DNA of 64,000 nt from an uncultured Solirubrobacterales bacterium (GCA_963704555.1 OY969921.1:2805600-2869599); one strand, 5' to 3'. Shown: positions 3,067 through 56,531, counted from the first letter of the stretch. Notes: generated by a model not told the origin, from the sequence alone. Program-made: numbers and translations.

Positions 3067-3156
3067 CGTTTCCTCCGTCTCAGAGTACGTTGACACCCTT
3101 AGGACGAACGATCCTCAGCGATTTCGACAGCTGCTGAGATCTAGCTCAGTGCGATG

Positions 3157-4239
3157 TTAGAGCCCATCGGACGCGAGCCCATCGGACGCGAGCCCGTCGG
3201 ACGCGAGCTGGTCGGACGCGGGCCTATCGGACGCGAGCTCGTCGGCCGCGGGCCCATCGGACGCGAGCTCGTCGGACGCGCAGAGCTCAGCCCAAACAGC
3301 CTTGCCTTGCGCTGTGCCTTCAGCGCCCCAGCGAAGCGACAGAGTCTCCACAAGACACAGCCCGTGCGTTGGCTGGGGGTTCAAGCCGCCGCCGCGAGCC
3401 ACAACACTCAGCGGGCTTGCGTCATGAACGGCGATGCGCAGGAGCGAGTCCTCGAGCGTCACCGAAAGAGAGAACGACGAGGCCGCGTGCAGCACCGCAT
3501 TGGTCGCAAGCTCGCTCACGACGACCGCCGCGTCCTGCAGAAGGCTGAGGCTACAGCCCCACTCCAACAAGGCGCCGAGCACGAGCCGGCGCGCCTGCCT
3601 AGGCGATGCGCGTTCAGCCGCGAACTCTGCCAGGAGCTTCCTTGCCGACGGTGCTTCTGGCCCGCGTAGATCATTTCCCCTCACACCATGCAACACCGAT
3701 GAGTGCAGATGACAGACCTGATGTAGCGCCTGCGCATGCTCAGCTCCGGAGACCGATGCCGCCGGGTAGGCGCAGTACAGGGAAAACGGCAACTCGCAAC
3801 CAAGGTCGTTCCACAGGGTCTCCAACTCGATCGCTCCAACGACGTCCCCGGCATCCCAGAGCAACGAGACCATCTCGCCGTAGGCACGGATGGCGCGACC
3901 AGACTCAGCCGCGCTGCGCAGAAGTCCACCGACAACCTCGTGGAAGGCGTCGCGATCGATTTGGCCATCGCGCATGAAAGCCGCCATCGTGGTGGCCGCA
4001 TCGAGGAAGACGAGCCTTTCGCCGGCACGGGCCTCGGCTGTGTCGATGCCGATCGTCTCGAGCGCCATGGCGAACGCGTCGCGGTGAGCTTCTGTGGCGA
4101 TCACGATCGCCACCTCGTCGGCCGCGACGCCGGCAGCGACATAGCCCGCCACGGCTTCGACCAACTCGGGGACGTGCTCGTAGAAATGGACGACATGGCC
4201 GCCGCCGTCAAACGATACGTCGTATGTCTGAGTAACCAT
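3157..4239 (-). CDS. MEDS-domain protein fused to an RsbW/SpoIIAB-like anti-sigma kinase domain, with a pentapeptide-repeat tail
   Basis: 360-aa ORF. N-terminal MEDS-like segment HVVHFYEHVPELVEAVAGYVAAGVAADEVAIVIATEAH. C-terminal HATPase-like segment (VVVSELATNAVLHA ... LRIAVHDASP ... HGLCLVETLSLRWG). Ends in an ASD(G/Q/R/E)(L/P) repeat tail. Confidence 0.7.
   Translation of the reverse strand: MVTQTYDVSFDGGGHVVHFYEHVPELVEAVAGYVAAGVAADEVAIVIATEAHRDAFAMALETIGIDTAEARAGERLVFLDAATTMAAFMRDGQIDRDAFHEVVGGLLRSAAESGRAIRAYGEMVSLLWDAGDVVGAIELETLWNDLGCELPFSLYCAYPAASVSGAEHAQALHQVCHLHSSVLHGVRGNDLRGPEAPSARKLLAEFAAERASPRQARRLVLGALLEWGCSLSLLQDAAVVVSELATNAVLHAASSFSLSVTLEDSLLRIAVHDASPLSVVARGGGLNPQPTHGLCLVETLSLRWGAEGTAQGKAVWAELCASDELASDGPAADELASDRPASDQLASDGLASDGLASDGL
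3160..3279. repeat. 15-bp tandem repeat x8 (GAGCCCATCGGACGC and variants) inside the 3' end of the CDS
   Basis: Read directly: eight consecutive 15-mers. They encode the C-terminal pentapeptide tail on the minus strand. Confidence 0.9.
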
Positions 4240-4279
4240 GAGTAGCTCTCTACCCCGAATTGAGCATCTTGAACTGGGT

Positions 4280-5086
4280 TCAGCTGACTGTGTAGCGCAC
4301 AGGTATCTCGCGCTCGGATTGCTTCGGTGGACGCTTGTACTTGCGACGTTGGCGCGGCGGGAGCTTGATCTTCTTAGTCTTGTCGGGGTGCTGGTAGGGG
4401 ATCAGTGAGAGTAGGTGGCTGATGAGGTTGAGTCTGGCGGTGCGCTTGTCGTCTGCCTCGACGACATGCCACGGGCTGTGGTCGGTGTCGGTGCGGGCGA
4501 ACATGCGGTCCTTCGCCTCAGCGTAGTCAACCCAACGCGCTCGGGCCTGTAGGTCGGTCGGGCTGAACTTCCAATGCTTGCGCGGGTCCGTCAGACGCTT
4601 CTCAAAGCGGCGCTCCTGCTCCTCGTCTGAGACCGACAGCCAATACTTTATGAGCGTGATCCCTTCGTTCTGCAACGACTGCTCGAACTGGGGACAGAAG
4701 CGCAGGAACTCCTCGTACTCCTCGGAGGTGCAATAGCCCATCACATGCTCGACGCCCGCCCGGTTGTACCAGCTGCGGTTGAACAGGGCGATCTCTCCGG
4801 CCGGCGGCAGATGGGCTGCGTAGCGTGCGAAGTACCACTGTGTGCGCTCCCGCTCGTCGGGAGCCGGCAAGGCCACGACGCGACAGGTGCGCGGGTTCAG
4901 GTAGGCCGTGATTCGCTTGATCGCACCGTCCTTGCCGGCGGTGTCGCGGCCCTCGAAGAGCACCACCAGCCGACGGCGCTGAGTAACGATCCACTCCTGC
5001 ATGTAGACCAGCTCTGTCTGCAGGCGCAACAGCTCCCTCTCGTACTGCTTGCCGCTCAACTGTTGGGGAGCTGACACCATTGCCAT
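4280..5086 (-). CDS. ppk2: polyphosphate kinase 2
   Basis: 268-aa ORF with PPK2 hallmarks VVLFEGRDTAGKDGAIKRI, WYFARY and LFNRSWYNRAGVEHVMGY. Confidence 0.9.
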   Translation of the reverse strand: MAMVSAPQQLSGKQYERELLRLQTELVYMQEWIVTQRRRLVVLFEGRDTAGKDGAIKRITAYLNPRTCRVVALPAPDERERTQWYFARYAAHLPPAGEIALFNRSWYNRAGVEHVMGYCTSEEYEEFLRFCPQFEQSLQNEGITLIKYWLSVSDEEQERRFEKRLTDPRKHWKFSPTDLQARARWVDYAEAKDRMFARTDTDHSPWHVVEADDKRTARLNLISHLLSLIPYQHPDKTKKIKLPPRQRRKYKRPPKQSEREIPVRYTVS

Positions 5087-5544
5087 CCTCGCACTTCTGG
5101 GATCGACTGAGCCGAGCCGGACAGCTCGGCGGTGTCTTACCGGGCCAAGCGTAGAGTCTCGAACTGTGATCGACGATACGACCGCGACGCCTTCGGTACA
5201 GGGGTCGCCGACGACAAGTTAAGGAAACGCTTTTACACACTAGAACGTTCGTCCAGAGCCACGACCCAAATATGTGCAATTTGCGTGCTTTCTGAGCTGT
5301 ACCACTAGCGACAAACATACGCGCGGGTTACCTTGCTGGTCTGCGATCGATACCGACAACCGATACTTCACCCTGGACGCAGGCTCTCCGGGACGCGGGA
5401 CTGCCCGTCGAGGCCGATCCGACCGCGACAGATCTGCTTGCCCAGCTCGATCTTGGGGAAACGCCCTCACCCACAGGCGAAGCGTCATCTCCCGTCGGCG
5501 ATAGCGAAGAACCGTCTGCCCCTCTCCTCGTAAAGCGCCAGGAG

Positions 5545-8500
5545 TTGCCGTTCCGCGTCCCGGTCGAGCTGAACATCCCCGGTCTCGGCGCAAGCCCGGT
5601 TCAGCCGCAGCACATCCTCGGCCCGCTTCCCGGCCTCACGGGAATTCATTGGTTCGAACTATTTGGCCCAGAGGACGCATATACGATCTACGCCGGCGGC
5701 GAGACTCGCCCAGTGCTGGTACTCACAGAGGCGCGACTGCCACGATTCGAGCTCGGTCTCCATCCTGGCAGCTCCTACACGGTCGAGATCTCCGGTGGCA
5801 CCGTGTGGATTCTCGCCTCTGCGCTGGATCCGGCTCTGCCCGCCGAGCGCTACCTAGGCTTCACCGTTGCCTCCGGAAGTCTCGTGTTGAAAAGCGCACC
5901 CGCGGTGACAGGCCGGCAGCTCACCCTCACGGGCCCACTGGAAGGGACACTCCAAGTCAAGCCCACGACAGCTGATGCCCCGAGCGCAGGCGAATGCCAG
6001 GCAGGCGTGACAATCGATCCACCAAGCAAGGTAACCGTCGCCTGGGGCTCTGGAGGACCTCCCCAACTAGAGCTCGGCAACGGCAGCGCGAGCTTCGCGG
6101 GTGAGACCGTCAAGTTCAGCAAATATCAGTCTTCGATCGAGGCGCAGCCCGCGCTCGATGCTGTGCTCTTCGAATATCAAGCGAGCCCCAAAAAGCTGGA
6201 CTTGGGTGCGCTGTCGAACGACCTCCTGACCGTCGAAGGGGAAACGTCGATCAAGGGCGGCTGGGCACTGACGCTCAACGAGCCATCGAACCCCGATCTT
6301 CCAGGGGAGGCAAGCGGTCCAGGGTTCTATCTGCTCTTTCCACAAGAACCGGTCGCGGCCCGGTGGCCGGGGTTGAGCGCTCCCGTGACGCTCAACCAGG
6401 CGACTGTCACGTTGAACGAGGGACAGCTCACGCTCGGCTCCAGCCACACCACGAGCAGAGAAGCCGCGGAGGAGACACTTCAGCTCTATGGCCTGCGGGA
6501 CGAACCGAGCGCACCGCGCCTACCGCTCGAGCTGAGCTTCGGCCCGGCGGACTTCACCTTCGCATACGTGTGTGACGCAGAACATGGTGAAGGTCTGTAC
6601 GCGACCTGCGCGGCGAATCTGCGAATCGATCGTCCGATCGATCTCGCGGGGCGCCCGCTCTCTTTGGGCGAGGCCACCCCGGCGCTGTTTGCCCTGGAGC
6701 GGCGCGAAGGCGTGACGAACGTAGAGGCGATCGGACTCGCCGCCGCACTCACAAGCCCGGCTGGGCTTGGCCGTCGCCTGCTCGCGCTGCGCAACGCGCT
6801 GTTGGCAGTAACAGAGCCCGCGATGTTCTTGCTGCGCGGGACGCTGAGCGCCCCGAGCACGGTCGATGCCGGGCGTCTGGAGTTGGTGCTCGGTAGCGAG
6901 GGTTGGCTGCCCACCCTGCCCGATCCATATGTCTCGAATCTAGGGCGCGGGGTGCGCGGATCGCTTGGCGAGCGCGCCATGACGCGCATTGCGATCGCCC
7001 AGTGTGCATGGCAAGAGCCTGAGCACCCTGTGTTGAGCTTCCACGGCCTGCTGTCCGCACCCGCCGCCACACCCGCCGAGGCTCCCGAAGGCACACCCCG
7101 TGCGCTCACCCAGGGCGAGGGGCAGGTGCTTGTGCCGACCCAGACCCAACAAGGCAGCACGTTGCAGAGTGGAGACCGTTTGAGCGTGCGCGCGTTGGGG
7201 GCCGAGCCTTTCGCGAGTCACGCCTCAGCTGAGCGCGGCGAGGAATTCGCGCTTCAAGAAAGGCAACTCGTGGCCATGCAGGCGCTCGCTCGCGAGACGA
7301 TCCCGGACCTCGGAGAAGGTCTGCGGCTGCTCGACGTGTCCACCAACAAGGACCTGCTCGGCGTCGAGATCGGTGTCGAGGAGACACAAGAGTCGAGTAG
7401 CTTCGCCGCCGCGGCACTGCCGGTTAGCGTGTCGGAGGGCGACACGTTCGCGCTCGAGGGCATGGACGTGTGCACACCCGCCTCGAACTTGCGGGTATTC
7501 ACGCTGCCACAGGTGCAGTGGGAGCCGGTGCGCACGCTCGACGTGGATCAAGACCTCGCGCACATCGGCTTCTTTCCAACGCCGTTGGCCTCCGCCACAG
7601 ACGGTGGCGCGACCGTCTTTGGGGTGCGCTCCACGCGACTGGTCGCCGCCATCCCCGACATCGCGGTGGACGCGGCGCTCGAGGAGTTCACAGGCGGTAG
7701 GGGCCTGGGAATGCTCACCACGCTGCCCTTCGGGATCAAGGCGCTGCTCACTCTGCGCCCGACGGAATCCTCGGGCGGGCGAGCCCCCGACAGCATCTCT
7801 CGCAACCAGCCCGACTTCTCCACTCAGGCGTTGCGAGGCGGGGCCCAGCTGGCACTCGTCGCGGAGTCGGGGCCGAGCACGGGGCCGATGTCGAGCAGCT
7901 TCGAAGGCGCGACGCTACAGCTGCTCAATGGTGTGTCGCTCCAGAGCGGCGCGCCGCTGAATATCAGCGTGCTCGGCAGCCCGCTCGATCCCACCGACAG
8001 CGTGCAGCGAATCTTCAACGACGAGTTCGGCCCGAGCAGCGAACATCGCCGAGTTCCAGTCACGCGCCTGGATATCTCCGGCTACGGCGAGTCTACCTTC
8101 AGCGAGTGGCTGCATCCAAGCGCCGCCTACGCACAGACAGCCAAGGCGCAGTTCGAGGTTATGGTCGGACGCGCGGCGCTCGAGGTGATCAAGGTCGCCT
8201 CGATCCTCTATCCATGGGGAATACGCCTGACACGCACGGTGACGATCGAACGCACCGCAGGCGCCGGGGTGATCCGCCGCGACAGCGGCTGGCAGGCCAG
8301 CTCCCCAGGGGTGTTCAACTTCCCGCCGGGCGAATCCGCGGCCGCTCCCTATCTCGTGGAGCCGGGACTCCTGCAGGGATTGTTTAACGTTCGCAACATT
8401 CGTCCCACAGGTGGGCTGCCGGTGGAATTCGTCGCGAAAGAAAGCGGCAAGCAGGTGATCCTCACCCCGAAGTATTTCGACGCCGATGCGCACATCGATG

Positions 8501-10185
8501 GCCTGGAAGGCAGCGACGCGCTTCCCGCGCTTGGGCTACTTGGCTTCCTGCAGGTCGAACCCGTTGGCGAACGCCTCGGTGAGGGTGACCTTGCGGCATT
8601 GATAGAACAGCAAGGACCGATCGGCGGTCCGGTGGATGGCACTGTGCAGGTCGGCCGCTCGGGCTTTCGCCTGCGCGCCACACGGATCGAGGTGGGTAGC
8701 TCCACCGACCCCGGAAGCTCCCGTCACGAGCTGGTCGGAGTGTTGCGCGGAGCGCCGATCTTTCACCAAGACGGCGCCTGGTCCTCAATCCGCCGCCCAG
8801 GACCCGGTAATTCACATGGCGAAGGGGAAGCCGTCGGAGTCGATGGCGTCCGCGGCGTGCCTGTGGTGCGCGAGGGCAAGCTCGTCGGCGAAAGCGCGAC
8901 CGAAGTAGATGTCGGAGCGCCCGGCGAGTATCGCTTCGTCGACCCGATCGATCTGCACGAGCCCGAATCGCCACAGTTCGAGTACGGCTTCATGCAGATC
9001 TCCCCCGCGCACGCATTCCTCTTCCCGCGACCGCACATCGACGAAGGCGTCGCGGAATTGAGCACCCGCAGCGTGCCTTACGTCGCCGATGTGTATGCCC
9101 GCATGACCGCCAAGGGCGCATTCCCACCCGCGGCCAACGCGGTTCAGCTTCCCTCAAACGCGCTGCTGCTCGATCCGGGCGGCGCCTTTCGCCTGCGCGA
9201 CGCCGTCGACATCACCGCTCCCCGGCCTCCCCTGATCCTCGCCAGCAACGGCAGCGACGTGGTTCAGATCGACTACTCCGAAGCGCGACTTCAGACAAAC
9301 CTGGAAGCCGATAGCTGGAGCCTCGACTTCACCGACATGAAGCTCTGGAGCGACTTGCTGGGGATCAAGAAGTTCGCCGGCTGGAGCTCTGACCTGCAGG
9401 CGGGCACGAGTCGCAAGCCGCTGATCGAAAACATCAACACGCTGATGGCCTCCGAGCTGCAGAGCGCGCTCAGCTTCCTGCAGGCATTCTCCTCGCCGCC
9501 CACACTCGCGCCTGTGGACCTCAGCGCGACCAACGGCGTCAGTGAGACACAGCTGTCGGTGATCATCAGCGTCTTCTTCGAACCGATCCCGAAAAAGCTC
9601 AAGATCGCGCTCGGCGTCAAGGGACAACTCGGATGGGAACACGCTCCGGCCGGAGTGCCGACTCCCGAAATGCCGACGGCGCCCACGGAGACCATCTCCG
9701 GAGCAGTGCTGCTGTGGGCTCAGATCGAAGGGAAGATCCCGATCACCGGCGTCTTCTTCCTGCTGCTTGGCGCTCAGCTGCAGGTTGGCGCCAAGTTCCT
9801 GATCAGCGAGAAAGCAGAAGTTCCCGAAGGCACCAGCTCCGAAGCGGTCACTGTGCCACACAAGCCCTCACTGGTGTTCGATCTTGAAGTGAAGGCCTTC
9901 GTCGGCGTTGGCATGAGCGCCGGGATCGTGGAAGGCTCGCTCTCGATCGGGGTTGCAATCGTGATCGAAGCGGCGGTGGTGAAGGTCGGGCCGCTCGTGC
10001 TGTTGCAGGCCGAAGTCGACCTCGAGATCATCAAGGTCGAAGTCTCGGGCGAATTCAAGGGCCTGTTCTTCGAAGAAAGCTCATCGACCATGTGCGAATG
10101 GGGCGGCACGGTTGAAATCAACGTGTCGATTTGCTTCATCGGCATCCACTTCGGCCTCGAACTGGCCGAGATAAGCAAAGTCTGA
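5545..10185 (+). CDS. very large uncharacterised protein (1546 aa); no family motif recognised
   Basis: Uninterrupted 4.6-kb ORF. The first canonical start is TTG 5545, although the frame is open from 5296; an alternative GTG lies near 5715. The C-terminal ~160 aa is rich in hydrophobic Gly/Val/Ile segments. Followed 12 nt later by the next large ORF. Confidence 0.75.
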   Translation: MPFRVPVELNIPGLGASPVQPQHILGPLPGLTGIHWFELFGPEDAYTIYAGGETRPVLVLTEARLPRFELGLHPGSSYTVEISGGTVWILASALDPALPAERYLGFTVASGSLVLKSAPAVTGRQLTLTGPLEGTLQVKPTTADAPSAGECQAGVTIDPPSKVTVAWGSGGPPQLELGNGSASFAGETVKFSKYQSSIEAQPALDAVLFEYQASPKKLDLGALSNDLLTVEGETSIKGGWALTLNEPSNPDLPGEASGPGFYLLFPQEPVAARWPGLSAPVTLNQATVTLNEGQLTLGSSHTTSREAAEETLQLYGLRDEPSAPRLPLELSFGPADFTFAYVCDAEHGEGLYATCAANLRIDRPIDLAGRPLSLGEATPALFALERREGVTNVEAIGLAAALTSPAGLGRRLLALRNALLAVTEPAMFLLRGTLSAPSTVDAGRLELVLGSEGWLPTLPDPYVSNLGRGVRGSLGERAMTRIAIAQCAWQEPEHPVLSFHGLLSAPAATPAEAPEGTPRALTQGEGQVLVPTQTQQGSTLQSGDRLSVRALGAEPFASHASAERGEEFALQERQLVAMQALARETIPDLGEGLRLLDVSTNKDLLGVEIGVEETQESSSFAAAALPVSVSEGDTFALEGMDVCTPASNLRVFTLPQVQWEPVRTLDVDQDLAHIGFFPTPLASATDGGATVFGVRSTRLVAAIPDIAVDAALEEFTGGRGLGMLTTLPFGIKALLTLRPTESSGGRAPDSISRNQPDFSTQALRGGAQLALVAESGPSTGPMSSSFEGATLQLLNGVSLQSGAPLNISVLGSPLDPTDSVQRIFNDEFGPSSEHRRVPVTRLDISGYGESTFSEWLHPSAAYAQTAKAQFEVMVGRAALEVIKVASILYPWGIRLTRTVTIERTAGAGVIRRDSGWQASSPGVFNFPPGESAAAPYLVEPGLLQGLFNVRNIRPTGGLPVEFVAKESGKQVILTPKYFDADAHIDGLEGSDALPALGLLGFLQVEPVGERLGEGDLAALIEQQGPIGGPVDGTVQVGRSGFRLRATRIEVGSSTDPGSSRHELVGVLRGAPIFHQDGAWSSIRRPGPGNSHGEGEAVGVDGVRGVPVVREGKLVGESATEVDVGAPGEYRFVDPIDLHEPESPQFEYGFMQISPAHAFLFPRPHIDEGVAELSTRSVPYVADVYARMTAKGAFPPAANAVQLPSNALLLDPGGAFRLRDAVDITAPRPPLILASNGSDVVQIDYSEARLQTNLEADSWSLDFTDMKLWSDLLGIKKFAGWSSDLQAGTSRKPLIENINTLMASELQSALSFLQAFSSPPTLAPVDLSATNGVSETQLSVIISVFFEPIPKKLKIALGVKGQLGWEHAPAGVPTPEMPTAPTETISGAVLLWAQIEGKIPITGVFFLLLGAQLQVGAKFLISEKAEVPEGTSSEAVTVPHKPSLVFDLEVKAFVGVGMSAGIVEGSLSIGVAIVIEAAVVKVGPLVLLQAEVDLEIIKVEVSGEFKGLFFEESSSTMCEWGGTVEINVSICFIGIHFGLELAEISKV

Positions 10186-10197
10186 GGTGAGCGAATC

Positions 10198-13100
10198 GTG
10201 AGCAGCGTACCCCGCCTTACCCTGATCCCCTACCTGCAGTCCTGGAACGGGGCTAGCGCCACGCTCACACTGAACGTCGTCGCGATCCCCGACGGCGATC
10301 CGCGCGCGTCGCTCACCGAGGGCTTTCCCACCACCGGGCCCCCTATCTCTGAAGCCAAGCTGGTGCTCGCGGCCAACCTCTCCTCAGAAGTCACACAGCT
10401 TCCGATGCTCACCGAAATCAGCGCCAGCGTAAGCGTGACACCGCCGATGCCGTCTGAGCGCGGGCTTGTCTTCGAAGCGCTGGAAGCCCTATTCAAACCT
10501 TCGGTAGCGGCAGCCCTGCCCGTGCGCAGCTCTGAACGCACGTTGCACAAGTATCTCGCCCCGAGCTACCGCAACGCGTTCGCGTTCGTCTCGCCGCGCA
10601 CCGAACTGGCGAGCATCGACGATGAGTACAAGTGCATGCTGCGCTGCCCGCCAAAGCAGCCTCTGCCAAAACCTGCCCCGCCCAGCTACAGCTGGATCGA
10701 CGCGCTGGGCTACGCAATGCGCCAGCCGATGGTGTTGCGCGCCGCCGGCCTGTTGCACACGATCGAGGTGACGCTCCCCACCCCCGATCTCTACGCTGAG
10801 GGCGGCTGGCTCTTCCTGACGCTCGATGCGAGCAGCGACTACGCGAGCTCGGCCCCGTTGCCGGGCTTCCTGCGCAGCTTTGCCACACGCGTGCCCTCGC
10901 TGAGCGCCGCTACGAAGAGACCGATCTTCACCGCTGTTCTCTTCCCCGCGTTCGCCGACGCCGGTGCGGCCGCGGCGACAGGCGACTCATACGACGAAAT
11001 ATTTCCCGAGGCGATCCGCTTCGACGACGGCTTTGCCAAGATCGTTCACGCCGCCCAGCAAGAGACGATGCTGCATCTCGACGAAGCCGGCGAAAGCCCT
11101 CCGCCGATTCAGGACCTCGGCATCTTCCTCGGCTGGGACGACGAGGACGTGCTGATCGCCCAGAATCGCCAGATCGGACTTAACCCCGACGGCAGCGAAC
11201 CGGCGGAAGCGCCCACCGGTGCGCTCGGATACCGCGTCGACGCGCGTACCCTCGGCGCGACAAAGTGGAGCTCGCTTGCGAAGGTTCACGCCGAGCAAGT
11301 CCTGTTGGGCACGCTCGACCTGGGCAGCTTCGACGGCGAGTTCCGCACCGAAGCTCATCCTCGGAGCTTGGGAGAGGAGCTGTGGCTGCCTGCCTACTTC
11401 ACCAGCTGGACCGGTGAATCGTTGGTGGCGAAGAGCCTCGACGACAAGCTGTTGCGTGGGATTCCCGGCGCCTCCTCCTCGCCGTATACCGCTGTCGGCC
11501 TCGACGCGGTCCCGCTGCGCTACGGGCAGAGCTACGAGTTCCGTGTGCGCCTCAGCGACCCAAGCGGCGGCGGGCCAGAGCTTGAAGAAGACGCGTTCAA
11601 CGCCGGCGAGCATCCCACGGCGGAGGTTCCCTTCAGGCGTTATGTGCCACCCAAGCAGCCGCGTGTGCAGACTCAGGAGACCTCGCCGGAACCACTCAGC
11701 GTGACGCTCGAACGGCCGCTGATCGGCTACCCGGAGGCCGTCTACACCGACATCTCCGAAGCGCAGACCCAGCTGATGGCGATCCACCGGCACAACGTCG
11801 AAAACCCCTCAGAACTGCAGGAAGTGGGATTGGCAGACGTCGATGCGAGCTACGTCGAGGTGCGCGTATTGGTGCGCACTCCCGCGTTCGACCCGGCAGC
11901 GAGCTTTGACGACTGGCTCGAGCTGTACACGACCACGCGCGAGTTCCCCTCCAACCCCGACGCGGCGATCACCCTGACGGGCAGCTACATGGACGTGGCC
12001 CAGCTCTCCGCACTCGATGTGAGTGCCCAGCAGGGTGCGCTTGGGAGCGTCAGCGGCCCGCTGCCGCTCCCCACGGCGCGCGACGTGCGCGTGGAACTGC
12101 GCGCGCTCTGTCGCGAAGATGCGACCTACTTCGCAAACGAAGCGGCGCGTCGCAGCCTTGCGGTAACGATCGACTTCCATCAGCCTGCCTCGAGCGAGCC
12201 CGAACCATTCCGTCCGATCGACCCCACGCTCGGCATGCGCTCCGTTTTCCTGCAGCCCGACTCCGTAGCGGGGGAATCAAGGCCCGCGGTGGTGCAGATC
12301 CAGAACGACCCGTCGGAAGTGCTGCTGGCGCGTCTCGCGCAAGCCGCAGGGCTAAGCGTCGGCGAAGGCGTGCTGCTGGCGCTGCCCGGCGAACGCGTGG
12401 TGTTCGGCTGCGCGGGCCTCGGCCACCGCCTCTCGCCCGACGGCGGCTCGCTGACGCTAACCCACCTTGCGGAGCTTGCGGGACAGTGGCTGAACGTGGT
12501 GCGGGTGGAGCTCGACCGCGACTGGACGTGGAAGGGCGCGGGCAGCCCATCACTGCGGCTGACGCGCTCGATCGCGCCCCTGCCAGGGGGTGCGACAAGC
12601 AGCGAAGAAGTCACCACGGTGCAGCTGATGAGCGCGGTGAACAGCACCGCGACCGAAGCGGAACCTGAGCGCGATCGTACGGTCGTGATTTTCATCGACG
12701 CTTTCAAGGCGCCTCTGGAAGGTGGCTTCCCGCACGAGCTCGCGCTCGGCTACGAGGTCGAGCTGTTGCTCGAGGACGGCGCTAGCGCACAGGTGTCACT
12801 GTCCAACACGCTGCCGGTCACGACAACCCCGCGCCAGATTCCGCAGGTGGTAGCGGCGGGGTATGCACTCTCCGAATACCTGGCCGACAAGGAATATTCG
12901 AGCACGGGCGAGCGCACGCGAATGCTGTGGCTGGAGCTCGCCGAGCCGTTGCGGGACACGCGTGACGCGTACTTCGTGCGTGTTCTCGCGCACAGCCCCG
13001 ATCCGATGCTGCTGGCACGCGTCGAACCTGCGGCCGATCCCCCGGGCTACGCCAGATCCGTGCTCGACCCTGAGCTGGTGCGCACGATCACCCCGGGCGA

Positions 13101-13815
13101 GGCCGACGATCTCGCAGGCCTTGCGACCATGCAGAAGCTTATCCCTGCGCAGGGATCGGATCGCCACTTCCTCGTGCCGCTGCCACCCGGCGTCTCGGCC
13201 GCCTCGCCGGAGCTGCTTGGCTTCTACACCTATGAAATTCGCGTCGGGCACGATCGTGGCACCGTGACAAATCCCTTCTGGTCAACGGCGCAGGGGCGCT
13301 TCGGCGAGCCGGTGGTACTCGAGGGAACACAGCACCCGGCGCCAACGCTGACCTGCGGGGTGACGCGGCTACCCGAAGGCGTGCTCATCGCGGCGCCTTA
13401 CGCGCGGCCCTACTACGAAGGGGCAAACCTCCTGCCGCAACCACCTAACACCGAAATCTGGGTCGTGCTCTATGCCCAGGTCCACCAGGCCGATAACGCC
13501 TCGATGCGAAATATCGAGCTGGTCGTACAGCGCGCCTCGCTCAAGCGTGAGGTCTTGGGCGCCGTCGGCATCGAGGACTTCGCAAGCGCGGGCACTCCGA
13601 GCGGGTTGATGGCCACGGCCAACTTTAGCAACGCCGATATAGAAGCATTGCTCGCACAGTTTGGGCTCGACGACGAGACGCCGCTGAGCGCGCTCGCGAT
13701 CGAGTTGATCCCCGAGCCCAACTCACCTTTCAACGATCCGTTGCGTAGCGAGCTCGGCGAAGTCAGGATCCTGCGCACCTCGCCGCTGATGACGATCGAG
13801 GGCGTCTGCTGCTGA
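10198..13815 (+). CDS. very large uncharacterised protein (1205 aa); no family motif recognised
   Basis: Uninterrupted 3.6-kb ORF. GTG start preceded by GAGGTGAG 5 nt upstream. Ends in ...IEGVCC. No signal peptide, P-loop or known repeat seen. Confidence 0.8.
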   Translation: MSSVPRLTLIPYLQSWNGASATLTLNVVAIPDGDPRASLTEGFPTTGPPISEAKLVLAANLSSEVTQLPMLTEISASVSVTPPMPSERGLVFEALEALFKPSVAAALPVRSSERTLHKYLAPSYRNAFAFVSPRTELASIDDEYKCMLRCPPKQPLPKPAPPSYSWIDALGYAMRQPMVLRAAGLLHTIEVTLPTPDLYAEGGWLFLTLDASSDYASSAPLPGFLRSFATRVPSLSAATKRPIFTAVLFPAFADAGAAAATGDSYDEIFPEAIRFDDGFAKIVHAAQQETMLHLDEAGESPPPIQDLGIFLGWDDEDVLIAQNRQIGLNPDGSEPAEAPTGALGYRVDARTLGATKWSSLAKVHAEQVLLGTLDLGSFDGEFRTEAHPRSLGEELWLPAYFTSWTGESLVAKSLDDKLLRGIPGASSSPYTAVGLDAVPLRYGQSYEFRVRLSDPSGGGPELEEDAFNAGEHPTAEVPFRRYVPPKQPRVQTQETSPEPLSVTLERPLIGYPEAVYTDISEAQTQLMAIHRHNVENPSELQEVGLADVDASYVEVRVLVRTPAFDPAASFDDWLELYTTTREFPSNPDAAITLTGSYMDVAQLSALDVSAQQGALGSVSGPLPLPTARDVRVELRALCREDATYFANEAARRSLAVTIDFHQPASSEPEPFRPIDPTLGMRSVFLQPDSVAGESRPAVVQIQNDPSEVLLARLAQAAGLSVGEGVLLALPGERVVFGCAGLGHRLSPDGGSLTLTHLAELAGQWLNVVRVELDRDWTWKGAGSPSLRLTRSIAPLPGGATSSEEVTTVQLMSAVNSTATEAEPERDRTVVIFIDAFKAPLEGGFPHELALGYEVELLLEDGASAQVSLSNTLPVTTTPRQIPQVVAAGYALSEYLADKEYSSTGERTRMLWLELAEPLRDTRDAYFVRVLAHSPDPMLLARVEPAADPPGYARSVLDPELVRTITPGEADDLAGLATMQKLIPAQGSDRHFLVPLPPGVSAASPELLGFYTYEIRVGHDRGTVTNPFWSTAQGRFGEPVVLEGTQHPAPTLTCGVTRLPEGVLIAAPYARPYYEGANLLPQPPNTEIWVVLYAQVHQADNASMRNIELVVQRASLKREVLGAVGIEDFASAGTPSGLMATANFSNADIEALLAQFGLDDETPLSALAIELIPEPNSPFNDPLRSELGEVRILRTSPLMTIEGVCC

Positions 13816-13841
13816 GAGGCGCAGCGCGGATCGAACGCTCG

Positions 13842-14313: not shown

Positions 14314-14678
14314 GTCTAAATCCTCTCTGTTGAGGTTTTGACAGCAAGGCTACTCCCGCTCCGGTGGTCCGTCGAGATGACAATAGGCAGCCAAACGTCG
14401 CAGGTGAGTACACCCGAGGCGTTGGCGATCAGGGTCGACCGGACGTGCACCGCCGAGGGCATCGTCGCGATCATCGAGGACTTAGTGTTCCTCGCAGCCG
14501 GCCAGAATGAAGCCCCCGCTCGTCGCGTGATCCGGCACCTGGTTAGCGGTGATGACCCGGAAAGCCTCGTGCGCGACGGCACGGATGCGACTTGACCTTA
14601 GCGTCCAGCGCCTAGGGAGGCAGAACACTCCTGTGCCGGCGCCATAAGACCACACTCTCGATATCTCCGTCTAACGTT

Positions 14679-15017
14679 TCACTTCCTAACACATCTTCTC
14701 ACGACTGCTTTTGCCTCCTGTTGGGTCAGTGGCTCGCCATACCGCATAAGGCCAGTTTCTCCATGCTGCGCCTCCTCTGCGCCGAAACGTTGCCTTACCG
14801 CCTCAACACCGCCGCTCTTCAAGCATGCGTTGATCGCCACCTTACTTCTATCGTAAGTCACCACAGCCCTACCGTCCTTCCGTGCAGGTGGGTCCTTCCG
14901 TGCAGATGGCGTGTCGGTTGCAGTTGAATGCTTCTCGGTTTCGCCGCACGCTACGACGACACTTGCCGTTATAGCGACTATCGCTGTTACACATAGGCGT
15001 AAGTAGCGAGTTTTCAT
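14679..15017 (-). CDS. putative lipoprotein (112 aa)
   Basis: N-terminus MKTRYLRLCVTAIVAITASVVVAC with a lipobox-like VVAC. The region looks lower in G+C than its neighbours. Confidence 0.6.
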   Translation of the reverse strand: MKTRYLRLCVTAIVAITASVVVACGETEKHSTATDTPSARKDPPARKDGRAVVTYDRSKVAINACLKSGGVEAVRQRFGAEEAQHGETGLMRYGEPLTQQEAKAVVRRCVRK

Positions 15018-15092
15018 CGAGCCTCCCTAAAGTTTGGTCATACTGCAGTGCCCTACATAGGTCTCATAAGCCATAGATCGCGGTTCAGACTG

Positions 15093-16241
15093 TCACCCGT
15101 TGGCACCCTCCGAACGACGCACAATCCCACGCACGAGGCGCACATTCTTGTACAGGGTTTCACCCGTGCTCTGTTCTAAGATCGCAAGCCGTGCCGACAC
15201 GGAATATCCGCCGTCCGCCTTCAGAATCGCTTCGGATCGCGCATTCAGCTTGAGCCTCACCGTACTCGTCTTGCCCGGGACAAGTGAAAATTCCCCGGTG
15301 CCGAGCATGACTGTGCGCGTACGCATCCCCTTCCCAGCCTTGGTCCTTATCCCCATCGACAGAGAGAGCTTGACATCGCAATGCCCGCCCCCGGCGCAGC
15401 GCAACTTGATCGCAGCGCCGCCGCCGCGCCCCACGACGATGCGGGTGTTCGCGAGCGACGCTTCCGACACGGATTCGATGGTTGGTGGTGTGGGGAGACG
15501 CTCCAGTATCTTCGCCGCTTCCCGCGCCCGCGCTTCTTCTTCCTCCTTGCGCACAGCCTCTGCGTTGGCAACCTGTTGGGCGGTGGCCGCGGCGTCCTGC
15601 TCGGCAACCCATGGTTCAAGTAAAGGTTCGTATGCTTTCGCGGTGTTTTCGGGCACCGGTGGCGAACCTTCACTTCGTGAACCCCCGACGGCCAAGGTCC
15701 TGAACAGCCGTTCCCTCGTTATCACGTGACCGGCGGAGTTTACGGCAGCCACCACGTAGCCATATTGTTCGTTCGCTTCCAGTCCCGTCACGGCTGTACT
15801 CACCATCTGCGCCCCGTTGCCGGCGGCTATGTGACCTTCACCCAGCGGACCCATCACCTCGATATAGCATTGCTTTTCATATCCGGCCCCGGGGCCTTTG
15901 CACACTTCGTGCCCCAACCAAAACGAGTACGCAGTTTCGAGCCCTTCCGGATTGATATGAGCTTCGAGCGTCGCGTCACCTTCGGCCACACCGGACACCG
16001 ACTCGCTTTCGACCATAGGTGCCGACGCGGCGCTTGACACCGCGGGTATGCATACGAGCCACAAAACGGGAAGCGATGCCAGTATTAATAGAACGAGGCG
16101 GCTGCGGAGCCAAACCACGCGGCGCGCTCTTACACGAGCCTTCGCGAGCCCGGATCGCGCTGGTGCTAGAGCTCCTGTTCGATGAGAAGGGCTGGGGTGG
16201 TTTCGTCTCATCCCTTCTGTCGCTAACCCGCTAGGCTTCAT
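15093..16241 (-). CDS. secreted or membrane-anchored protein with an FN3-like module
   Basis: 382-aa ORF. Hydrophobic signal/anchor LVLLILASLPVLWLVCIPAVSSAASA. ATLEAHINPEGLETAYSFWLG resembles the module ATLSGTVNPNASDTHYYFQYG of the 993-aa protein at 56722-59703. Confidence 0.6.
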   Translation of the reverse strand: MKPSGLATEGMRRNHPSPSHRTGALAPARSGLAKARVRARRVVWLRSRLVLLILASLPVLWLVCIPAVSSAASAPMVESESVSGVAEGDATLEAHINPEGLETAYSFWLGHEVCKGPGAGYEKQCYIEVMGPLGEGHIAAGNGAQMVSTAVTGLEANEQYGYVVAAVNSAGHVITRERLFRTLAVGGSRSEGSPPVPENTAKAYEPLLEPWVAEQDAAATAQQVANAEAVRKEEEEARAREAAKILERLPTPPTIESVSEASLANTRIVVGRGGGAAIKLRCAGGGHCDVKLSLSMGIRTKAGKGMRTRTVMLGTGEFSLVPGKTSTVRLKLNARSEAILKADGGYSVSARLAILEQSTGETLYKNVRLVRGIVRRSEGANG

Positions 16242-16596
16242 CGACTGTTTCCACTAGACGCGCGCCTGTGAACCGCCGTTTCAACCAAAAGCTCGTCTCG
16301 ACATCCCAGAATGCTGGCGGGATAGAGCCAACAGGCGTGGCAAACTCGAATCCTTGAGTGGCCACAATAGCCGGCGGTGTGATATGGACAACATCTTCGA
16401 CTTGGGCCGTATACGCGCCGACAAAACCGGCGATATGCTCGCCCTCAGGAAGTCGGGGCGGACCACCAGCAGGTTCGTCAAACACCACCGGAAACGCTTC
16501 AGAGTCGGCTTTCTCCGCCTTTTCTGCATCGAATCCTTCATAGGCGGTTTCGGATGCGGCTTGTAAATTGACAGCTTCGGGACTCGTCAACATCAC
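16231..16596 (-). CDS. hypothetical protein; possibly the 3' part of a frameshifted gene with 16538-16987
   Basis: 121-aa ORF that overlaps the upstream ORF by 59 nt in a different frame. A single-base shift near 16620-16630 would join the two reading frames. Confidence 0.4.
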   Translation of the reverse strand: MMLTSPEAVNLQAASETAYEGFDAEKAEKADSEAFPVVFDEPAGGPPRLPEGEHIAGFVGAYTAQVEDVVHITPPAIVATQGFEFATPVGSIPPAFWDVETSFWLKRRFTGARLVETVDEA

Positions 16597-16987
16597 CGTC
16601 TGCTGCGCACGAAGCTGTTCGCCCTTCGGTAGGCGAGCCGCTGATCACCAGCGGATTCCCCAACAGCGACAGCGATCCAACCGTCGCAGAATCCCCATAC
16701 CAAGGATACGCCACGACACGAGAATCCCCACGACCGTGGCGCGAGTATTGACCACGCGATCCAGAGCTCGTACGTGCTACCGCGGGCTTTCCCCGAACCG
16801 GGCCCTCGTGACGGGCTCCCACGTGAGCGGCTGTCCCCAATGGTCGTGTGGCTGAAGCGACCGCCGGCCCCACACCCGCGAGCGCAACCAACACCAGGAG
16901 CACGCTTATACAAGCGCACCGTGCACCTCTGCTCCTACCTGCCATCCGTCCCCCCACCTCTCTCGAGTTCGAGTCCAGGCGCCACAC
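16538..16987 (-). CDS. hypothetical secreted protein (N-terminal part)
   Basis: Signal-like segment ARCACISVLLVLVALAGVGPAVASA. See the 16231-16596 entry. Confidence 0.4.
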   Translation of the reverse strand: MWRLDSNSREVGGRMAGRSRGARCACISVLLVLVALAGVGPAVASATRPLGTAAHVGARHEGPVRGKPAVARTSSGSRGQYSRHGRGDSRVVAYPWYGDSATVGSLSLLGNPLVISGSPTEGRTASCAADGDVDESRSCQFTSRIRNRL

Positions 16988-17325
16988 ACGGCTACACGAG
17001 TCGTTTTGTACGCGCGCTTTTTATCACACGCCGGGGAGCACAGCCCGTTCACTGACATAATTTTGATAATAAGACTATGGATAGTTTCGCTCGCGCCAAT
17101 CGACAAACGGCTCGCATCCAGACGATCCGCCGAAACCTCCTGCTGCAAGATTCCTTGCAGACATTTGGACCGGGGGCTCAGACTGGCCCAACAGCCCTCG
17201 ATACACGACCGCGTCTCGCGCGTGGAGCTACAACCCGAGCTGTCCGTCGGCGACTTTGACGAGTCGTCGTAGCTGCGTGGGATCGACTCGCGCGTCCCGG
17301 GCTCGCTGCGGAGACTTTCGCAAAG

Positions 17326-17371
17326 TGCGCCCGGCGGGAATCGAACCGCAACCTTCGGATTATGAGTCCGT
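17326..17371 (-). other. 3' fragment of a tRNA-Met (CAT) gene, decayed; possible att-site remnant
   Basis: Minus strand reads ACGGACTCATAATCCGAAGGTTGCGGTTCGATTCCCGCCGGGCGCA. That gives an anticodon stem-loop with CTCATAA, a T-loop TTCGATT and an acceptor 3' strand. The T-stem lacks one G relative to GCGGG/CCCGC. No D-arm or 5' acceptor exists because a CDS stop abuts at 17372. Confidence 0.55.
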
Positions 17372-53450: not shown

Positions 53451-53661
53451 CTGAGACTGCACACTGGGCAACCAAAGTAAACCTGAGGCTAGCTTGCCGC
53501 TTACGGCATAACTGAGAGATTGCCGGCCATCGTTAGCGTGGCCAGCGCTGCCACCAGGACCGCACTACCGATGCCCCAGGCACGCAGAGAGCCCGGCGTG
53601 AGCCCGGTATGTAGGCGTCGATCGAGCTGCATCCACAGCGAGAGCAGACAGAGCGCCAAGC

Positions 53662-54774
53662 CTACGTACTCAAAGACAACCGGGATATAGCCCTCCCCCA
53701 CGGGATGCCCGTCTGCCAGCGTTCGGTGAGACTGACAAGCACCGCTGGCGTGACCCAGATCCAGGCGCCCAGTAGCGCGTACAAACTTGAGCTGTGCTGC
53801 GCTACCGACTGCATATTGCCTGCGAGCCTGCGCATGCCAAAGAACACCGGGATACCGAGCACGATCGCGATTGTCAGGATAAGGGTGCCCGCGACCGGGG
53901 GTACGGCGACGTGACCGAGCCACCACTGTGATAGCGGCAGCGCCGCCAGCATTTGCTTGGTAAAGGTCTCCAGCACGAGGTGTGAGTGCCAGCTGAGCGT
54001 GTACTCCGGGACCGGATGGGGGCTCCCGAAGATGTGCAGCGAAATGACGATCAGCAACGCGATTGCTACTGGGATCACGATCGCGAGCGCCGGGCGCCAG
54101 TCATGGCGACGGACGAGAACAATGAGGATCAGCACCGGGGCGAACAGTCCCACAACCTCGTAGCTGAAAAGCGCGAGTAGGTAGAGTGCGCCAGCGAGCA
54201 CCATCCAGCGTACGCCAGTCTTGACCAGCAACACCAGCAGGGAGCCGAACGTCAATGCCGTCGTCAACGCGATTATGCCGGCGAAGGAGTCGATGCCGTC
54301 GGACCACGGGCGCACCTGCAACGTGCCTGCCACGATCAGCACGAAAGCCACCCCTGGGATCCAGCTATCGGCAATCGTAACTATGCACAGCGCTACCGAT
54401 ACAAGCGCTAGCAGAAGCACCACGCCGACGATCAGCTTGTAGGAGTTACGATTATCGAATGCGTCGAACAACGTGTAGGTCCACCCCAAAAGCACTGGAT
54501 CAAAGCGCGCGTCGCGTTCGGCGAAGGCCGAGATTTGCGTCCATATATACGGTCCCAGTGAAGTGTGGGCTTCGCGCAGTGTGACGCGTAGGTTGCGATC
54601 GATGAGGTCGTCGTTGGCGTAAGGCGACTCCAACACCAGCGCGAAGTAAACGCCCAGTACCCATGTCACGATCGCCGCATGCATCGCCGTGAGCGGACGG
54701 CGCTCGGAGGAATGCGGCGTCTCTATCACAGTCGGAGGTGGCGCTGTATACGTTGAGGTAGCGATCAACGCCAT
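53662..54774 (-). CDS. polytopic integral membrane protein (about 10 TM)
   Basis: 370-aa ORF made almost entirely of hydrophobic helices. Visibly lower G+C than the first 50 kb. Overlaps the upstream gene by 10 nt. Confidence 0.7.
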   Translation of the reverse strand: MALIATSTYTAPPPTVIETPHSSERRPLTAMHAAIVTWVLGVYFALVLESPYANDDLIDRNLRVTLREAHTSLGPYIWTQISAFAERDARFDPVLLGWTYTLFDAFDNRNSYKLIVGVVLLLALVSVALCIVTIADSWIPGVAFVLIVAGTLQVRPWSDGIDSFAGIIALTTALTFGSLLVLLVKTGVRWMVLAGALYLLALFSYEVVGLFAPVLILIVLVRRHDWRPALAIVIPVAIALLIVISLHIFGSPHPVPEYTLSWHSHLVLETFTKQMLAALPLSQWWLGHVAVPPVAGTLILTIAIVLGIPVFFGMRRLAGNMQSVAQHSSSLYALLGAWIWVTPAVLVSLTERWQTGIPWGRAISRLSLST

Positions 54775-56531
54775 GTGTTAGGAACGGCATAGAGGAGCAC
54801 TCCGCCCAAACGGCTACCGTGTAGACCGATATTAGCAAGGTAGGTTGGCCACGGATCCTGTGCGGAGAGAATCACATCGGCGGTATCCACCACAATATGA
54901 CTGACGTGGTGCTGTTGGATGAAAGATACGAGCGATGACGCCGAAGGGGTTTCGTTCGAGAAGAGCTGAGCCGTAGTTGCTTCAGTTCTGAATGGCGGAG
55001 GCATCACCTGTCCCACATAACCCTCGGGCATGTAAAAGTAAAAGCCCGTCTCGGCCTGCCAGAGTGTAGATACGTCGTTAGCCCCGAACGGCAGTATCAG
55101 CACCGTCTCGCCTGGAGACAGATAGTGCCTATATGTGGCTGTAGAGAAAAAACGTGGGTTGTCCGGCGGCACCCCATAGAAAATTTTAGGGACGTTCGGA
55201 AAGAGCATAATTACAGCAAGTGCCACAACGAGCCAGCGCCCCGCTCGAACCAGCGAGCGCCCTGCGGGTCGTGCCACCCATGCAGCAATACCAATCGCGA
55301 CTGCAAGGCTGGTAAACACCGAAATACGCTCTGGGCTAATACTACTAAAAATCGGCAGATTCTTGAGCCAGTTAGCCGGTAGTGCAGCAGTGTCGTGCCC
55401 AGCGATGTGAAGATGAGCGCCCAGCGCCAATACAAAGCTCAATACTGCCACTATCAACACCAACTTGGTAAGCAAACGCTTTCGTTGAACGCTAACGCCC
55501 CAGGTCACAAAGGCGACTACTAGCGGAATACTCAAATACCCATCCTCGCCTGTCACCCCTCCGCCCGCATACTTGGCGCTAAGCGCATGAAACGCCTGGT
55601 GACCAAACCATGTGACTTCGGTCGGAAAGAATGGGTTAAGCAAATCCATCGCGTAGACATTCCAGAATTCGCCTATACTCTCCGGGCCGCCTCCGCTTAT
55701 CAAAGCGTAATAGAAAAAGGGCGCCCCTACTACCAATGCCAGCATACCTGCTGCGATCGTCTCCAGACTCAGCCTGTCCACCCCCGGACGTTGCCATTTC
55801 TGCACCAAAAAACGTGCTGATATCAGGAGCACCGCTCCGAACCCGACAGCCTCAGCGAGAATTTCGGTTGAGAGACCGGCCTGTAGGATGAACACTACCG
55901 CCATAAGCAAGACGTACTTGCGCGTTGACAATTCGTTATCCCAGCGCTTCAAGGCTAGGTGAACTATTACCGGAAGCAAAAAAATGAGTGTAAGGTTTAT
56001 GTGTCCGGTCAGCTGGGCGAAGTTATAGGCACTAAAGCCGTACAAAAAGCCGCCTATAACTGCGGGCAGCTCTCGCAGAACCAGGCGGCGACAAAGAAGG
56101 TATGCAGTAAACGCGCTCAGCACAGCACTAGCTAGACTCAAAAGGTTGTAAGAAACCACAGGACCGGCCAGCGCTGTGATAGGCGCCATCACAATTGCAG
56201 CCGTAGGGATCATCGCACCCTGAGCTACATTGACGCCGGTTGGCGACCATTGATAGTGGGTCACAAACGGATTAAGTCCGTGGATAATCGCGTGTGGCCA
56301 CCACGACAACGCCCACATATAGGCGGCTGGGTCTGAACTGCCGACACAAGCGCATACGCTGCCAGGATGGCTGAGCGCGTGACGGCCGATCGTGACAACG
56401 CCCAGAAACAAGTAGAAAGCTAGGGCAAGTATCCAGGTGGGCACAGTCCCATCTGCACGATTCGCTAGCTTCCTGAGCAGTCCTACTAGACGCGACAGGG
56501 TGGTCGATTGTGCCCGACGTTCAGTCGGCAT
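54765..56531 (-). CDS. large polytopic membrane protein, GT-C-like glycosyltransferase candidate
   Basis: 588-aa ORF with more than 10 TM helices followed by a ~130-aa soluble C-terminal domain. The first loop, SSDPAAYMWALSWWPHAIIHGLNPF, has an acidic residue as in GT-C enzymes. The family call is tentative. Confidence 0.6.
   Translation of the reverse strand: MPTERRAQSTTLSRLVGLLRKLANRADGTVPTWILALAFYLFLGVVTIGRHALSHPGSVCACVGSSDPAAYMWALSWWPHAIIHGLNPFVTHYQWSPTGVNVAQGAMIPTAAIVMAPITALAGPVVSYNLLSLASAVLSAFTAYLLCRRLVLRELPAVIGGFLYGFSAYNFAQLTGHINLTLIFLLPVIVHLALKRWDNELSTRKYVLLMAVVFILQAGLSTEILAEAVGFGAVLLISARFLVQKWQRPGVDRLSLETIAAGMLALVVGAPFFYYALISGGGPESIGEFWNVYAMDLLNPFFPTEVTWFGHQAFHALSAKYAGGGVTGEDGYLSIPLVVAFVTWGVSVQRKRLLTKLVLIVAVLSFVLALGAHLHIAGHDTAALPANWLKNLPIFSSISPERISVFTSLAVAIGIAAWVARPAGRSLVRAGRWLVVALAVIMLFPNVPKIFYGVPPDNPRFFSTATYRHYLSPGETVLILPFGANDVSTLWQAETGFYFYMPEGYVGQVMPPPFRTEATTAQLFSNETPSASSLVSFIQQHHVSHIVVDTADVILSAQDPWPTYLANIGLHGSRLGGVLLYAVPNTWR

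Follow-up and report, generated by a model that had tools for sequence, protein, structure and literature searches.

We analysed a 64,000-nucleotide stretch of DNA (hereafter, the window) from an uncultured Solirubrobacterales bacterium (GCA_963704555.1 OY969921.1:2805600-2869599), in which two very large, co-directional genes, here called A and B, lie next to each other on the plus strand. The open reading frame (ORF) of gene A runs from a TTG codon at 5545 to 10185 and encodes 1,546 amino acids (aa), its reading frame being open since 5296, and the ORF of gene B (10198 to 13815) begins with GTG and encodes 1,205 aa. The spacer between them is 12 nucleotides (nt) long, and the junction reads aaa gtc TGA GGTGAGCGAATC GTG. 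A Shine–Dalgarno (SD) sequence of the GAGGTGA type, belonging to gene B, overlaps the stop codon of gene A, and the junction is likely to be a translational-coupling site. The ORF calls and the junction sequence agree with the original prediction, made from the sequence alone, which had described two giant ORFs with a 12-nt gap and an SD-like sequence. The GC content of the two genes is 64.6–65.9%, compared with 63.6% for the window, and GC at third codon positions (GC3) is 0.77 for gene A from 5545 on and 0.80 for gene B. High GC3, together with hundreds of full-length homologues of each protein, establishes A and B as real genes beyond chance.

Homologues of B were found in 365 of the 185,579 species genomes in the collection (approximately 0.2% of species). 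More than 1,183 B homologues were recovered, all unannotated and nearly constant in length at around 1,200–1,235 aa, with a larger subtype of 1,300–1,420 aa. The A family is more divergent than the B family, and repeating the word-indexed search with the A alignment brought in no more than 9 further sequences. Locus-level counts were made on the 80 best B-anchored loci, taken from a search in which each species was represented by a single genome. A hidden Markov model (HMM) of A detected an A homologue directly upstream of B on the same strand in 77 of the 80; two of the three exceptions had no upstream sequence and the third had a truncated B. The distant A homologues P0156 and P0022 (27–31% identity) were also followed by a B-sized gene without a Pfam match. 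The distance from the A stop to the B start had a median of 18 nt, and 63 of the 74 loci were within the range of −4 to +40 nt. Across 59 loci, the pairwise identity matrices of A and B were closely correlated (r = 0.96, Spearman 0.91), with mean identities of 31% for A and 41% for B, showing that A evolves faster. Thus, A and B are a self-contained, co-evolving two-gene cassette that is inherited as a unit, and the expectation that homologues of the two genes would be found side by side was borne out.

Some loci depart from the usual spacing. The large outliers in the A–B gap, L063 and L070 (both Saprospiraceae), are insertions on the opposite strand that leave A and B intact: a PIN/VapC-like toxin with a small partner ORF in L063 (7152–7844) and an IS200/RAYT-like transposase in L070 (6992–7804), both identified from translations judged by eye. 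In P0306, an 8.2-kb contig from JGI sample 3300056388, a single ORF comprises full-length A and the first ~415 residues of B. The remainder of B is encoded by the gene that follows, and a DDE transposase lies upstream. We rejected this contig as a genuine A–B fusion and do not count it as Rosetta-stone evidence because B carries on in a separate gene, the contig is short and a transposase adjoins it; the probable explanation is degradation of the copy or a misassembly. One metagenomic locus (L091, 10553–14218) has a third co-directional gene, encoding 1,221 aa, 30 nt after B. The gene was not seen elsewhere and has TIG and PG_binding_1 matches and weak PLD and Nal1_C matches.

The 80 loci come from Solirubrobacterales, Micromonospora, Nonomuraea, Cellulomonas, Myxococcota, Bacteroidota, Cyanobacteria (Microcystis and Nodosilinea), Planctomycetota, Alphaproteobacteria, Acidobacteriota, Chloroflexota, Verrucomicrobiota, Gemmatimonadota, Ignavibacteriales and Eubacteriales. 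Solirubrobacterales is the window's own clade, and the B protein of one member, L008, is 96% identical. The carriers include both monoderms (Actinomycetota and Bacillota) and diderms, with the same architecture in each. B proteins from Cellulomonas, Pirellula, Micromonospora and a Chloroflexia metagenome-assembled genome (MAG) are 67–70% identical and those of Nonomuraea and Corallococcus 61% identical, whereas those of the two actinomycete genera Micromonospora and Nonomuraea are just 37% identical. Because the identity matrices of A and B correlate with each other and contradict taxonomy, we conclude that the pair was transferred as a unit and that the cassette has moved horizontally among at least a dozen bacterial phyla. 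Megaplasmid copies occur in Tistrella mobilis, where the cassette lies between RelE/RelB and HipA modules, in Bacillus toyonensis, where it lies near an ABC-three-component gene, and in Chlorohelix and Microvirga. Distant Solirubrobacterales have only the cassette itself in common (5525 to 13822, at 76% nucleotide identity), in unrelated contexts, and strains that are 93% identical retain the same site with insertions or deletions (indels) on both flanks.

Clustering of all flanking ORFs from the 80 loci revealed no conserved third gene within 8 kb, and the clusters that did form contained only generic histidine kinases (11 loci) and short-chain dehydrogenases/reductases (7 loci). Among the 141 nearest neighbours of these loci, neither Pfam families nor PADLOC models were enriched. 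We also considered the cassette as a mobile element and rejected this, as flanking direct or inverted repeats and a tRNA are absent. A comparison of two Crocinitomicaceae loci (L005 and L006, 16000–23700) showed that the cassette and its near flanks are common to both and that the downstream DNA differs, with a type III restriction–modification system in L006 where L005 has proteases sorted by the type IX secretion system.

We found no known family for either protein. A and B had no match in Pfam, NCBIfam, PADLOC, PHROGs or PDB sequences, and searches with family profiles and individual scans of 28 A and 35 B relatives still gave no family match. Against PADLOC-DB 2.0, no family was reached by A or by B at E values up to 1. 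A PDB sequence search with the B profile returned a sole, weak match, the FN3 consensus protein 4u3h (E 0.17–0.8). Regular expressions found neither a P-loop nor an HExxH motif in A or B, and no RHS/YD match was present among the 28 A or 35 B members. On these points the original prediction was correct: sequence-profile and fold searches place neither protein in a characterised family. A profile comparison of A with B led us to reject the idea that they are paralogues. No publication on the A–B family came up in literature searches, whether these used accessions or descriptive terms. In addition, tblastn gave no match in 50,697 phage records and none was found in IMG/VR, and the absence of the pair from phage and viral collections means that there is no sign of phage–host exchange. 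With no match to phage records, IMG/VR or PHROGs, a phage origin of the cassette was rejected. Two outcomes set beforehand as refuting the proposal, a match to a known family and homologues lying apart, were both checked and neither occurred. As each membership test that ran failed on a defining feature and generic FN3-like folds alone were shared, we regard the A–B cassette as new and uncharacterised, outside every described protein family or system.

To describe protein B, we combined structure prediction with conservation analysis. An AlphaFold2 model (me460fedc3bc5), built from 114 sequences, was mostly beta with a predicted local distance difference test score (pLDDT) of 88 and a predicted template modelling score (pTM) of 0.68. 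Foldseek matched this model to the alpha-2-macroglobulin ECAM (E 4e-9), A2ML1, C3, cytokine-receptor FN3 arrays and arrestins, and also to phage FN3/J-like and tip-attachment proteins. Matches to FN3 arrays had a probability of 0.95–1.0. Every match had a template modelling (TM) score at or below 0.14, which indicates that the likeness lies in strings of FN3/MG-like sandwiches and not in a common global architecture. B is therefore predicted, from its model, to be a compact array of FN3/MG-like beta-sandwiches. It combines a predicted FN3-like beta-sandwich with the F-strand pattern Y-x-[FY]-x-[VI]-R-V; a regular expression located this type of motif at residue 446 and again, as YTYEIRV, at residue 1010. 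The Pfam fn3 model matched neither B nor any of 35 relatives. Contrary to the earlier statement that FN3-type repeats are absent, B thus shows FN3-type modules by fold prediction and by its F-strand motifs.

The closest fold matches of B in the PDB (ECAM, A2ML1 and C3) had E values of 4e-9 to 1e-4 but TM scores of only 0.09–0.14. For ECAM, the E value of 4e-9 was accompanied by a TM score of 0.09 and a root-mean-square deviation near 50 Å, and cytokine-receptor FN3 arrays and arrestins had similar scores. Like the alpha-2-macroglobulin/C3 proteins (ECAM/YfhM in bacteria), B is predicted to contain about ten FN3/MG-like beta-sandwich domains. In contrast to them, it lacks the thioester motif CxEQ (found in none of 114 B sequences and none of 28 A sequences), its model has no large helical domain, and neither B nor its 35 relatives match Pfam A2M/MG or NCBIfam models or have a PDB sequence match. 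Alpha-2-macroglobulin proteins are exported, whereas the 114 B sequences have no signal peptide or lipobox, and the partner of Escherichia coli ECAM/YfhM is PBP1C, whereas that of B is A. The matches to phage tail and host-recognition proteins in BFVD were generic FN3/J-like folds with TM scores near 0.1.

The acidic motif WDDED of B lies in the most conserved N-terminal part, which contains alpha/beta structure (residues 80–340, with H284), and D314 and D315 stay invariant in a broader alignment (A8); B is also rich in invariant tryptophans. The C-terminal 40 residues are among the most conserved of the protein (EPNGxFxDPLGxDLGxVRILRTSPL...CC), and members of the larger subfamily end in VCCPTC or VCCTVC. 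The original prediction had noted the -GVCC ending, which is indeed present in the translation, and had suggested that it might be lipidated. We disfavour this role. The Cys-Cys pair is 99% conserved along with an invariant CxxxC at residues 146–150, and we infer from this pattern of conservation that the two motifs may form a Cys4 metal site, or clasp, joining the C terminus to the N-terminal part. Such a site would fit a cytoplasmic protein, and none of the 114 B sequences has a signal-peptide-like or hydrophobic N-terminal segment.

Protein A was modelled over residues 430–1629 of its extended frame. The AlphaFold2 model (m3cf8d77f4979; pLDDT 79.5, pTM 0.65) was almost entirely beta. Its conserved core carries the motifs LPTLPDPY, LLDVSTNKDLLGVE, LPQVQWEPV and TLPFG, and further RLDxSGYGxSxFSxW, VGRTALEV, RRDSGWQ and FDAD. 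Within the core is a linker with gap-rich, unconserved alignment columns that is predicted to be disordered. The last ~300 residues form a tail of about 14 long antiparallel strands of 12–21 residues in the model. In the final ten strands, one face is aliphatic, with a mean hydropathy of 1.8–3.6, and the other is polar (−0.4 to −1.6). The hydrophobic segments rich in Gly, Val and Ile that had been pointed out at the end of A are present, and they fall in this predicted beta-rich module of long amphipathic strands. A profile of the tail had 1,312 matches among 1.84 billion representative proteins. In the best 150 of these, the module was always at the extreme C terminus of A-family proteins or fragments, which identifies it as family-specific.

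Foldseek matched the A model weakly to LptD, FimD/PapC ushers, SlpA, porins, CdiB and apolipoprotein B-100. Outer-membrane beta-barrels (LptD, FimD/PapC, Omp85/CdiB, SlpA, porins and autotransporters) resemble A in having long antiparallel amphipathic strands, and they were the best fold matches of A, yet weak ones (E at or above 3e-5, TM <0.1). They need a signal peptide and a diderm host, whereas A has no signal peptide and occurs in Actinomycetota and Bacillota. Pfam outer-membrane protein domains are absent from A and, unlike in these barrels, a C-terminal aromatic beta-signal is not consistent across the family. Of 28 A N termini, one barely exceeded the hydropathy threshold and the remainder had no signal-peptide-like segment. 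Together with the B N termini, this agrees with the earlier observation that both proteins lack a signal peptide.

Several lines of evidence bear on the start of gene A. TTG 5545 is the first canonical start in a frame that is open upstream, as originally stated, and alignments of homologues point to an earlier start. A homologues carry around 65–100 further N-terminal residues, and in the nearest relatives these align with window positions 5341–5544. TTG 5545 is replaced by CTG in L008, a strain with 93% identity. In L008, the A protein (P0001, 1,633 aa) begins with a GTG, which a single-base difference (GAAGCT versus GAGCT) puts out of frame in the window. Yet another in-frame TTG occurs in a third strain, L010, and the window closes that frame with TGA. 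CTG 5341 is kept in all three strains and aligns with the ATG of P0006 and P0007. GC3 over 5296–5544 is only 0.57, so the coding signal there is weak. Judging from these alignments, the true start of A is probably upstream of TTG 5545, with CTG 5341 as a candidate, and the discrepancy may reflect a non-canonical start or an indel introduced by sequencing, or the protein may be genuinely shortened. The leader in front of this candidate start is AT-richer, as had been reported (56.3% GC, compared with 63.6% for the window). It is 93% identical in L008 and L010, with a 1-nt indel at 5294–5296, and no sigma-70-like promoter, terminator or regulatory RNA/Rfam match was detected in it. In two Solirubrobacterales MAGs (L010, 3011–11656, and L011, 3013–11720), A and B are each split into 2–3 overlapping ORFs, the cause being either pseudogenisation or indel errors in long-read assembly. 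The same long-read caveat applies equally to the 1-nt difference at 5294–5296 in the window. The features of the cassette are collected below.

Table 1. Positions of cassette features, numbered from the first nucleotide of the window
Feature	Position	Strand	Basis
Upstream intergenic region/leader	5087..5340	+	Bounded by the divergent PPK2 gene (4280-5086, minus strand) and by the likeliest A start
Gene A, from its candidate start	5341..10185	+	ORF calls; N-terminal alignment of 27 homologues; three-strain DNA alignment; GC3
Conserved core of A, predicted mostly beta	6583..9264	+	Invariant columns in alignments A1 and A3; AlphaFold2
Variable, low-confidence linker of A, then long helix	7084..7224	+	pLDDT <50, model residues 168-214
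Family-specific C-terminal module of A	9286..10182	+	Model secondary structure; face hydropathy; Foldseek; profile search
Stop codon of A and 12-nt A-B spacer	10183..10197	+	Sequence; SD-like GAGGTGA
Gene B, predicted compact multi-domain beta-sandwich protein with FN3/MG-like modules	10198..13815	+	ORF; homologues; AlphaFold2; Foldseek
CxxxC of B (C146, C150), context YxCxxxCPP	10633..10647	+	Cys frequency 1.0 in both columns, 114 sequences
Acidic motif WDDED of B (W313-D317)	11134..11148	+	W313, D314, D315 and E316 are invariant columns
FN3-type F-strand motif YEFRVRL of B (residue 446)	11533..11553	+	Regular expression; the weak 4u3h profile match falls here
C-terminal Cys-Cys of B	13807..13812	+	99% conserved in both alignment columns

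The DNA around the cassette varies among close relatives. Its upstream neighbours are a MEDS/HATPase sensor gene (3157–4239) and a PPK2 gene (4280–5086), both on the minus strand; the segment that holds them (3077–5219) is missing in L008 and partly present in L010. Directly downstream, a block of about 3 kb (14400–17371) is not found in L008 or L010, the 93%-identical strains. Its GC content is 59.9%, compared with 63.6% for the window, its ORFs have no Pfam or PHROGs match (for example, 15093–16241 on the minus strand, 382 aa), and it looks like a strain-specific insertion. With the upstream genes missing or partial in these strains, both flanks of the cassette are indel hotspots among close relatives. 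Further away, a low-GC patch (53600–59800; 48–58% GC) contains a 993-aa FG-GAP/dockerin/fn3 protein (56722–59703, minus strand) and two minus-strand ORFs without any Pfam match (53662–54774 and 54765–56531) that adjoin a LuxR-type regulator. This patch is possibly a horizontally acquired island.

Considering these features together, our best overall explanation, which we offer tentatively, is that A and B form a complex in which the amphipathic tail of A contacts membrane or lipid and B serves as a scaffold or gate, the cassette as a whole being an accessory, conflict-type module. The cytoplasm would be the place of synthesis of A and B, which carry no secretion signals, and the two would assemble into one complex. 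Cytoplasmic synthesis is suggested by the lack of signal-like N termini, by the same architecture in monoderms and diderms and by the conserved Cys motif. B would provide a compact FN3/MG-like scaffold, probably clasped by the putative Cys4 metal site, and the long C-terminal strands of A would present one continuous aliphatic face. The tail might then be the working end, touching or inserting into the cell membrane or binding lipid, and B might hold, position or gate it. Speculatively, the module could be a latent pore, toxin or abortive-infection-like effector rather than a metabolic enzyme. Its accessory character is indicated by the cross-phylum clades, the rarity of the pair (365 of 185,579 species genomes), the megaplasmid copies, the variable flanks and the lack of a third gene. 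Of the interpretation originally given, the coupled unit, the lack of a known family and the beta-rich A tail stand, the toxin-like reading is possible, and lipidation and a surface machine are not supported.

A number of observations weigh against our proposal. No homologue of A or B provides a link with membranes, with toxicity or with phage. Matches of A in the fold search are weak (E 3e-5 to 1e-2, TM <0.1), and the tail, as predicted, would fit a closed barrel, an open sheet or a lipid groove alike; its aliphatic strand face could also just pack on the rest of A or on B. The proteins are strongly conserved and have no hypervariable region, and B is 44–49% identical across phyla, which is unusual in arms-race genes. 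Defence genes are not enriched among the nearest neighbours, where PADLOC matches amount to about 4 of 141, one per family (SNF2 helicase, reverse transcriptase, TIR protein and Cas1). Finally, the many invariant D, E, H and R residues of B could mean that an enzymatic activity has gone undetected.

Some of these same observations would suit a complex that handles lipids or remodels membranes. The tail of A would then be a hydrophobic groove or belt for lipid or lipid droplets, comparable to LptD/LptA jellyrolls, AsmA-like grooves or the beta-belt of apolipoprotein B, with a role in physiology instead of conflict and no pore. Ten long A strands with one uniformly aliphatic face, Foldseek matches that include LptD and apolipoprotein B-100, strong conservation without hypervariable parts and the absence of defence-island enrichment are all consistent with this idea. 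However, the patchy, rare (approximately 0.2% of species) and taxonomy-violating spread is unexpected for a housekeeping lipid role, lipid-metabolism genes are absent among the neighbours and all structural matches are weak, and we consider a lipid-handling role doubtful.

A bolder reading is a horizontally mobile two-protein membrane-attack machine of a new class, in which B, as a cytoplasmic MG/FN3-array sensor or gatekeeper resembling complement and alpha-2-macroglobulin proteins but without a thioester, would control A, and the beta-hairpin array at the C terminus of A would turn into a pore, either in the membrane of the cell itself or in that of a target; we think this reading rather unlikely. 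A strict anti-phage function would be a special case of the proposed A–B complex, with the Ig-like array of B sensing a phage component and A executing abortive infection. PADLOC's two-gene anti-phage cassettes are likewise small, self-contained, patchy across phyla and found at variable genomic spots. The flanks of the A–B cassette vary even between 93%-identical strains, and its occasional neighbours include a type III restriction–modification system (L006), toxin–antitoxin modules and an ABC-three-component gene. Unlike those cassettes, neither protein matches a PADLOC model, the nearest neighbours are not rich in defence genes, and recognisable sensor or effector enzyme domains (nuclease, NTPase or signalling) are absent. 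Moreover, sequence conservation is high, and phage and viral collections lack the pair and give no sign of phage–host exchange. These points make a dedicated anti-phage system unlikely.

The original prediction had also considered a surface machine. In an exported surface or secreted apparatus, A would be a barrel translocator or anchor of the usher, Omp85/TpsB or autotransporter kind and B an Ig/FN3 passenger, adhesin or S-layer-like protein. The matches of the A model to FimD/PapC ushers, CdiB, LptD and SlpA, and the resemblance of B to the Ig/FN3 arrays that characterise surface proteins and the fibres of phages, are what such a machine would predict. However, a Sec/Tat-like N terminus is absent in 28 A and 114 B sequences, and the pair has an unchanged architecture in hosts without an outer membrane (Micromonospora, Cellulomonas, Nonomuraea, Bacillus, Paenibacillus and Solirubrobacterales). 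There is also no consistent C-terminal aromatic beta-signal, secretion genes are not conserved nearby and the conserved Cys cluster would fit a reducing compartment. We therefore set the surface machine aside as improbable. Least convincing is a Tc-toxin-like BC pair or lysis-released toxin, a shell or pore directed against eukaryotic grazers or competitors: A and B recall TcB–TcC as adjacent, signal-less, beta-rich giants of similar size (~1,600 and ~1,200 aa) that are horizontally mobile and sometimes plasmid-borne, including on a megaplasmid in the Bacillus cereus group, but RHS/YD, SpvB and TcdB Pfam domains occur in 0 of 28 A and 0 of 35 B proteins, the C terminus of B is highly conserved instead of being a hypervariable toxin domain, neither a TcA-like partner gene nor a lysis cassette lies nearby and the Tc/RHS cocoon is not among the top Foldseek matches, so that such a toxin is very unlikely.

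About 8.3 kb of coding sequence has been kept intact by selection, with B 44–49% identical across phyla, which implies that the cassette has a demanding function. It lends itself to direct testing, as its models are confident, its two-gene layout is compact and its carriers include hosts that can be cultured (Micromonospora, Nonomuraea, Corallococcus, Tistrella mobilis and Bacillus toyonensis). A new pore-forming or lipid-binding fold family would be defined if the amphipathic beta tail of A turned out to be a membrane effector. Should the membrane-attack reading be true, the cassette would be a bacterial analogue of immunity by an MG-domain sensor plus a beta-barrel pore, unrelated in sequence to known pore-formers. 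As strictly paired proteins of ~1,600 and ~1,200 residues without database relatives, A and B represent one of the larger gaps that are left in our picture of what bacterial genomes encode.

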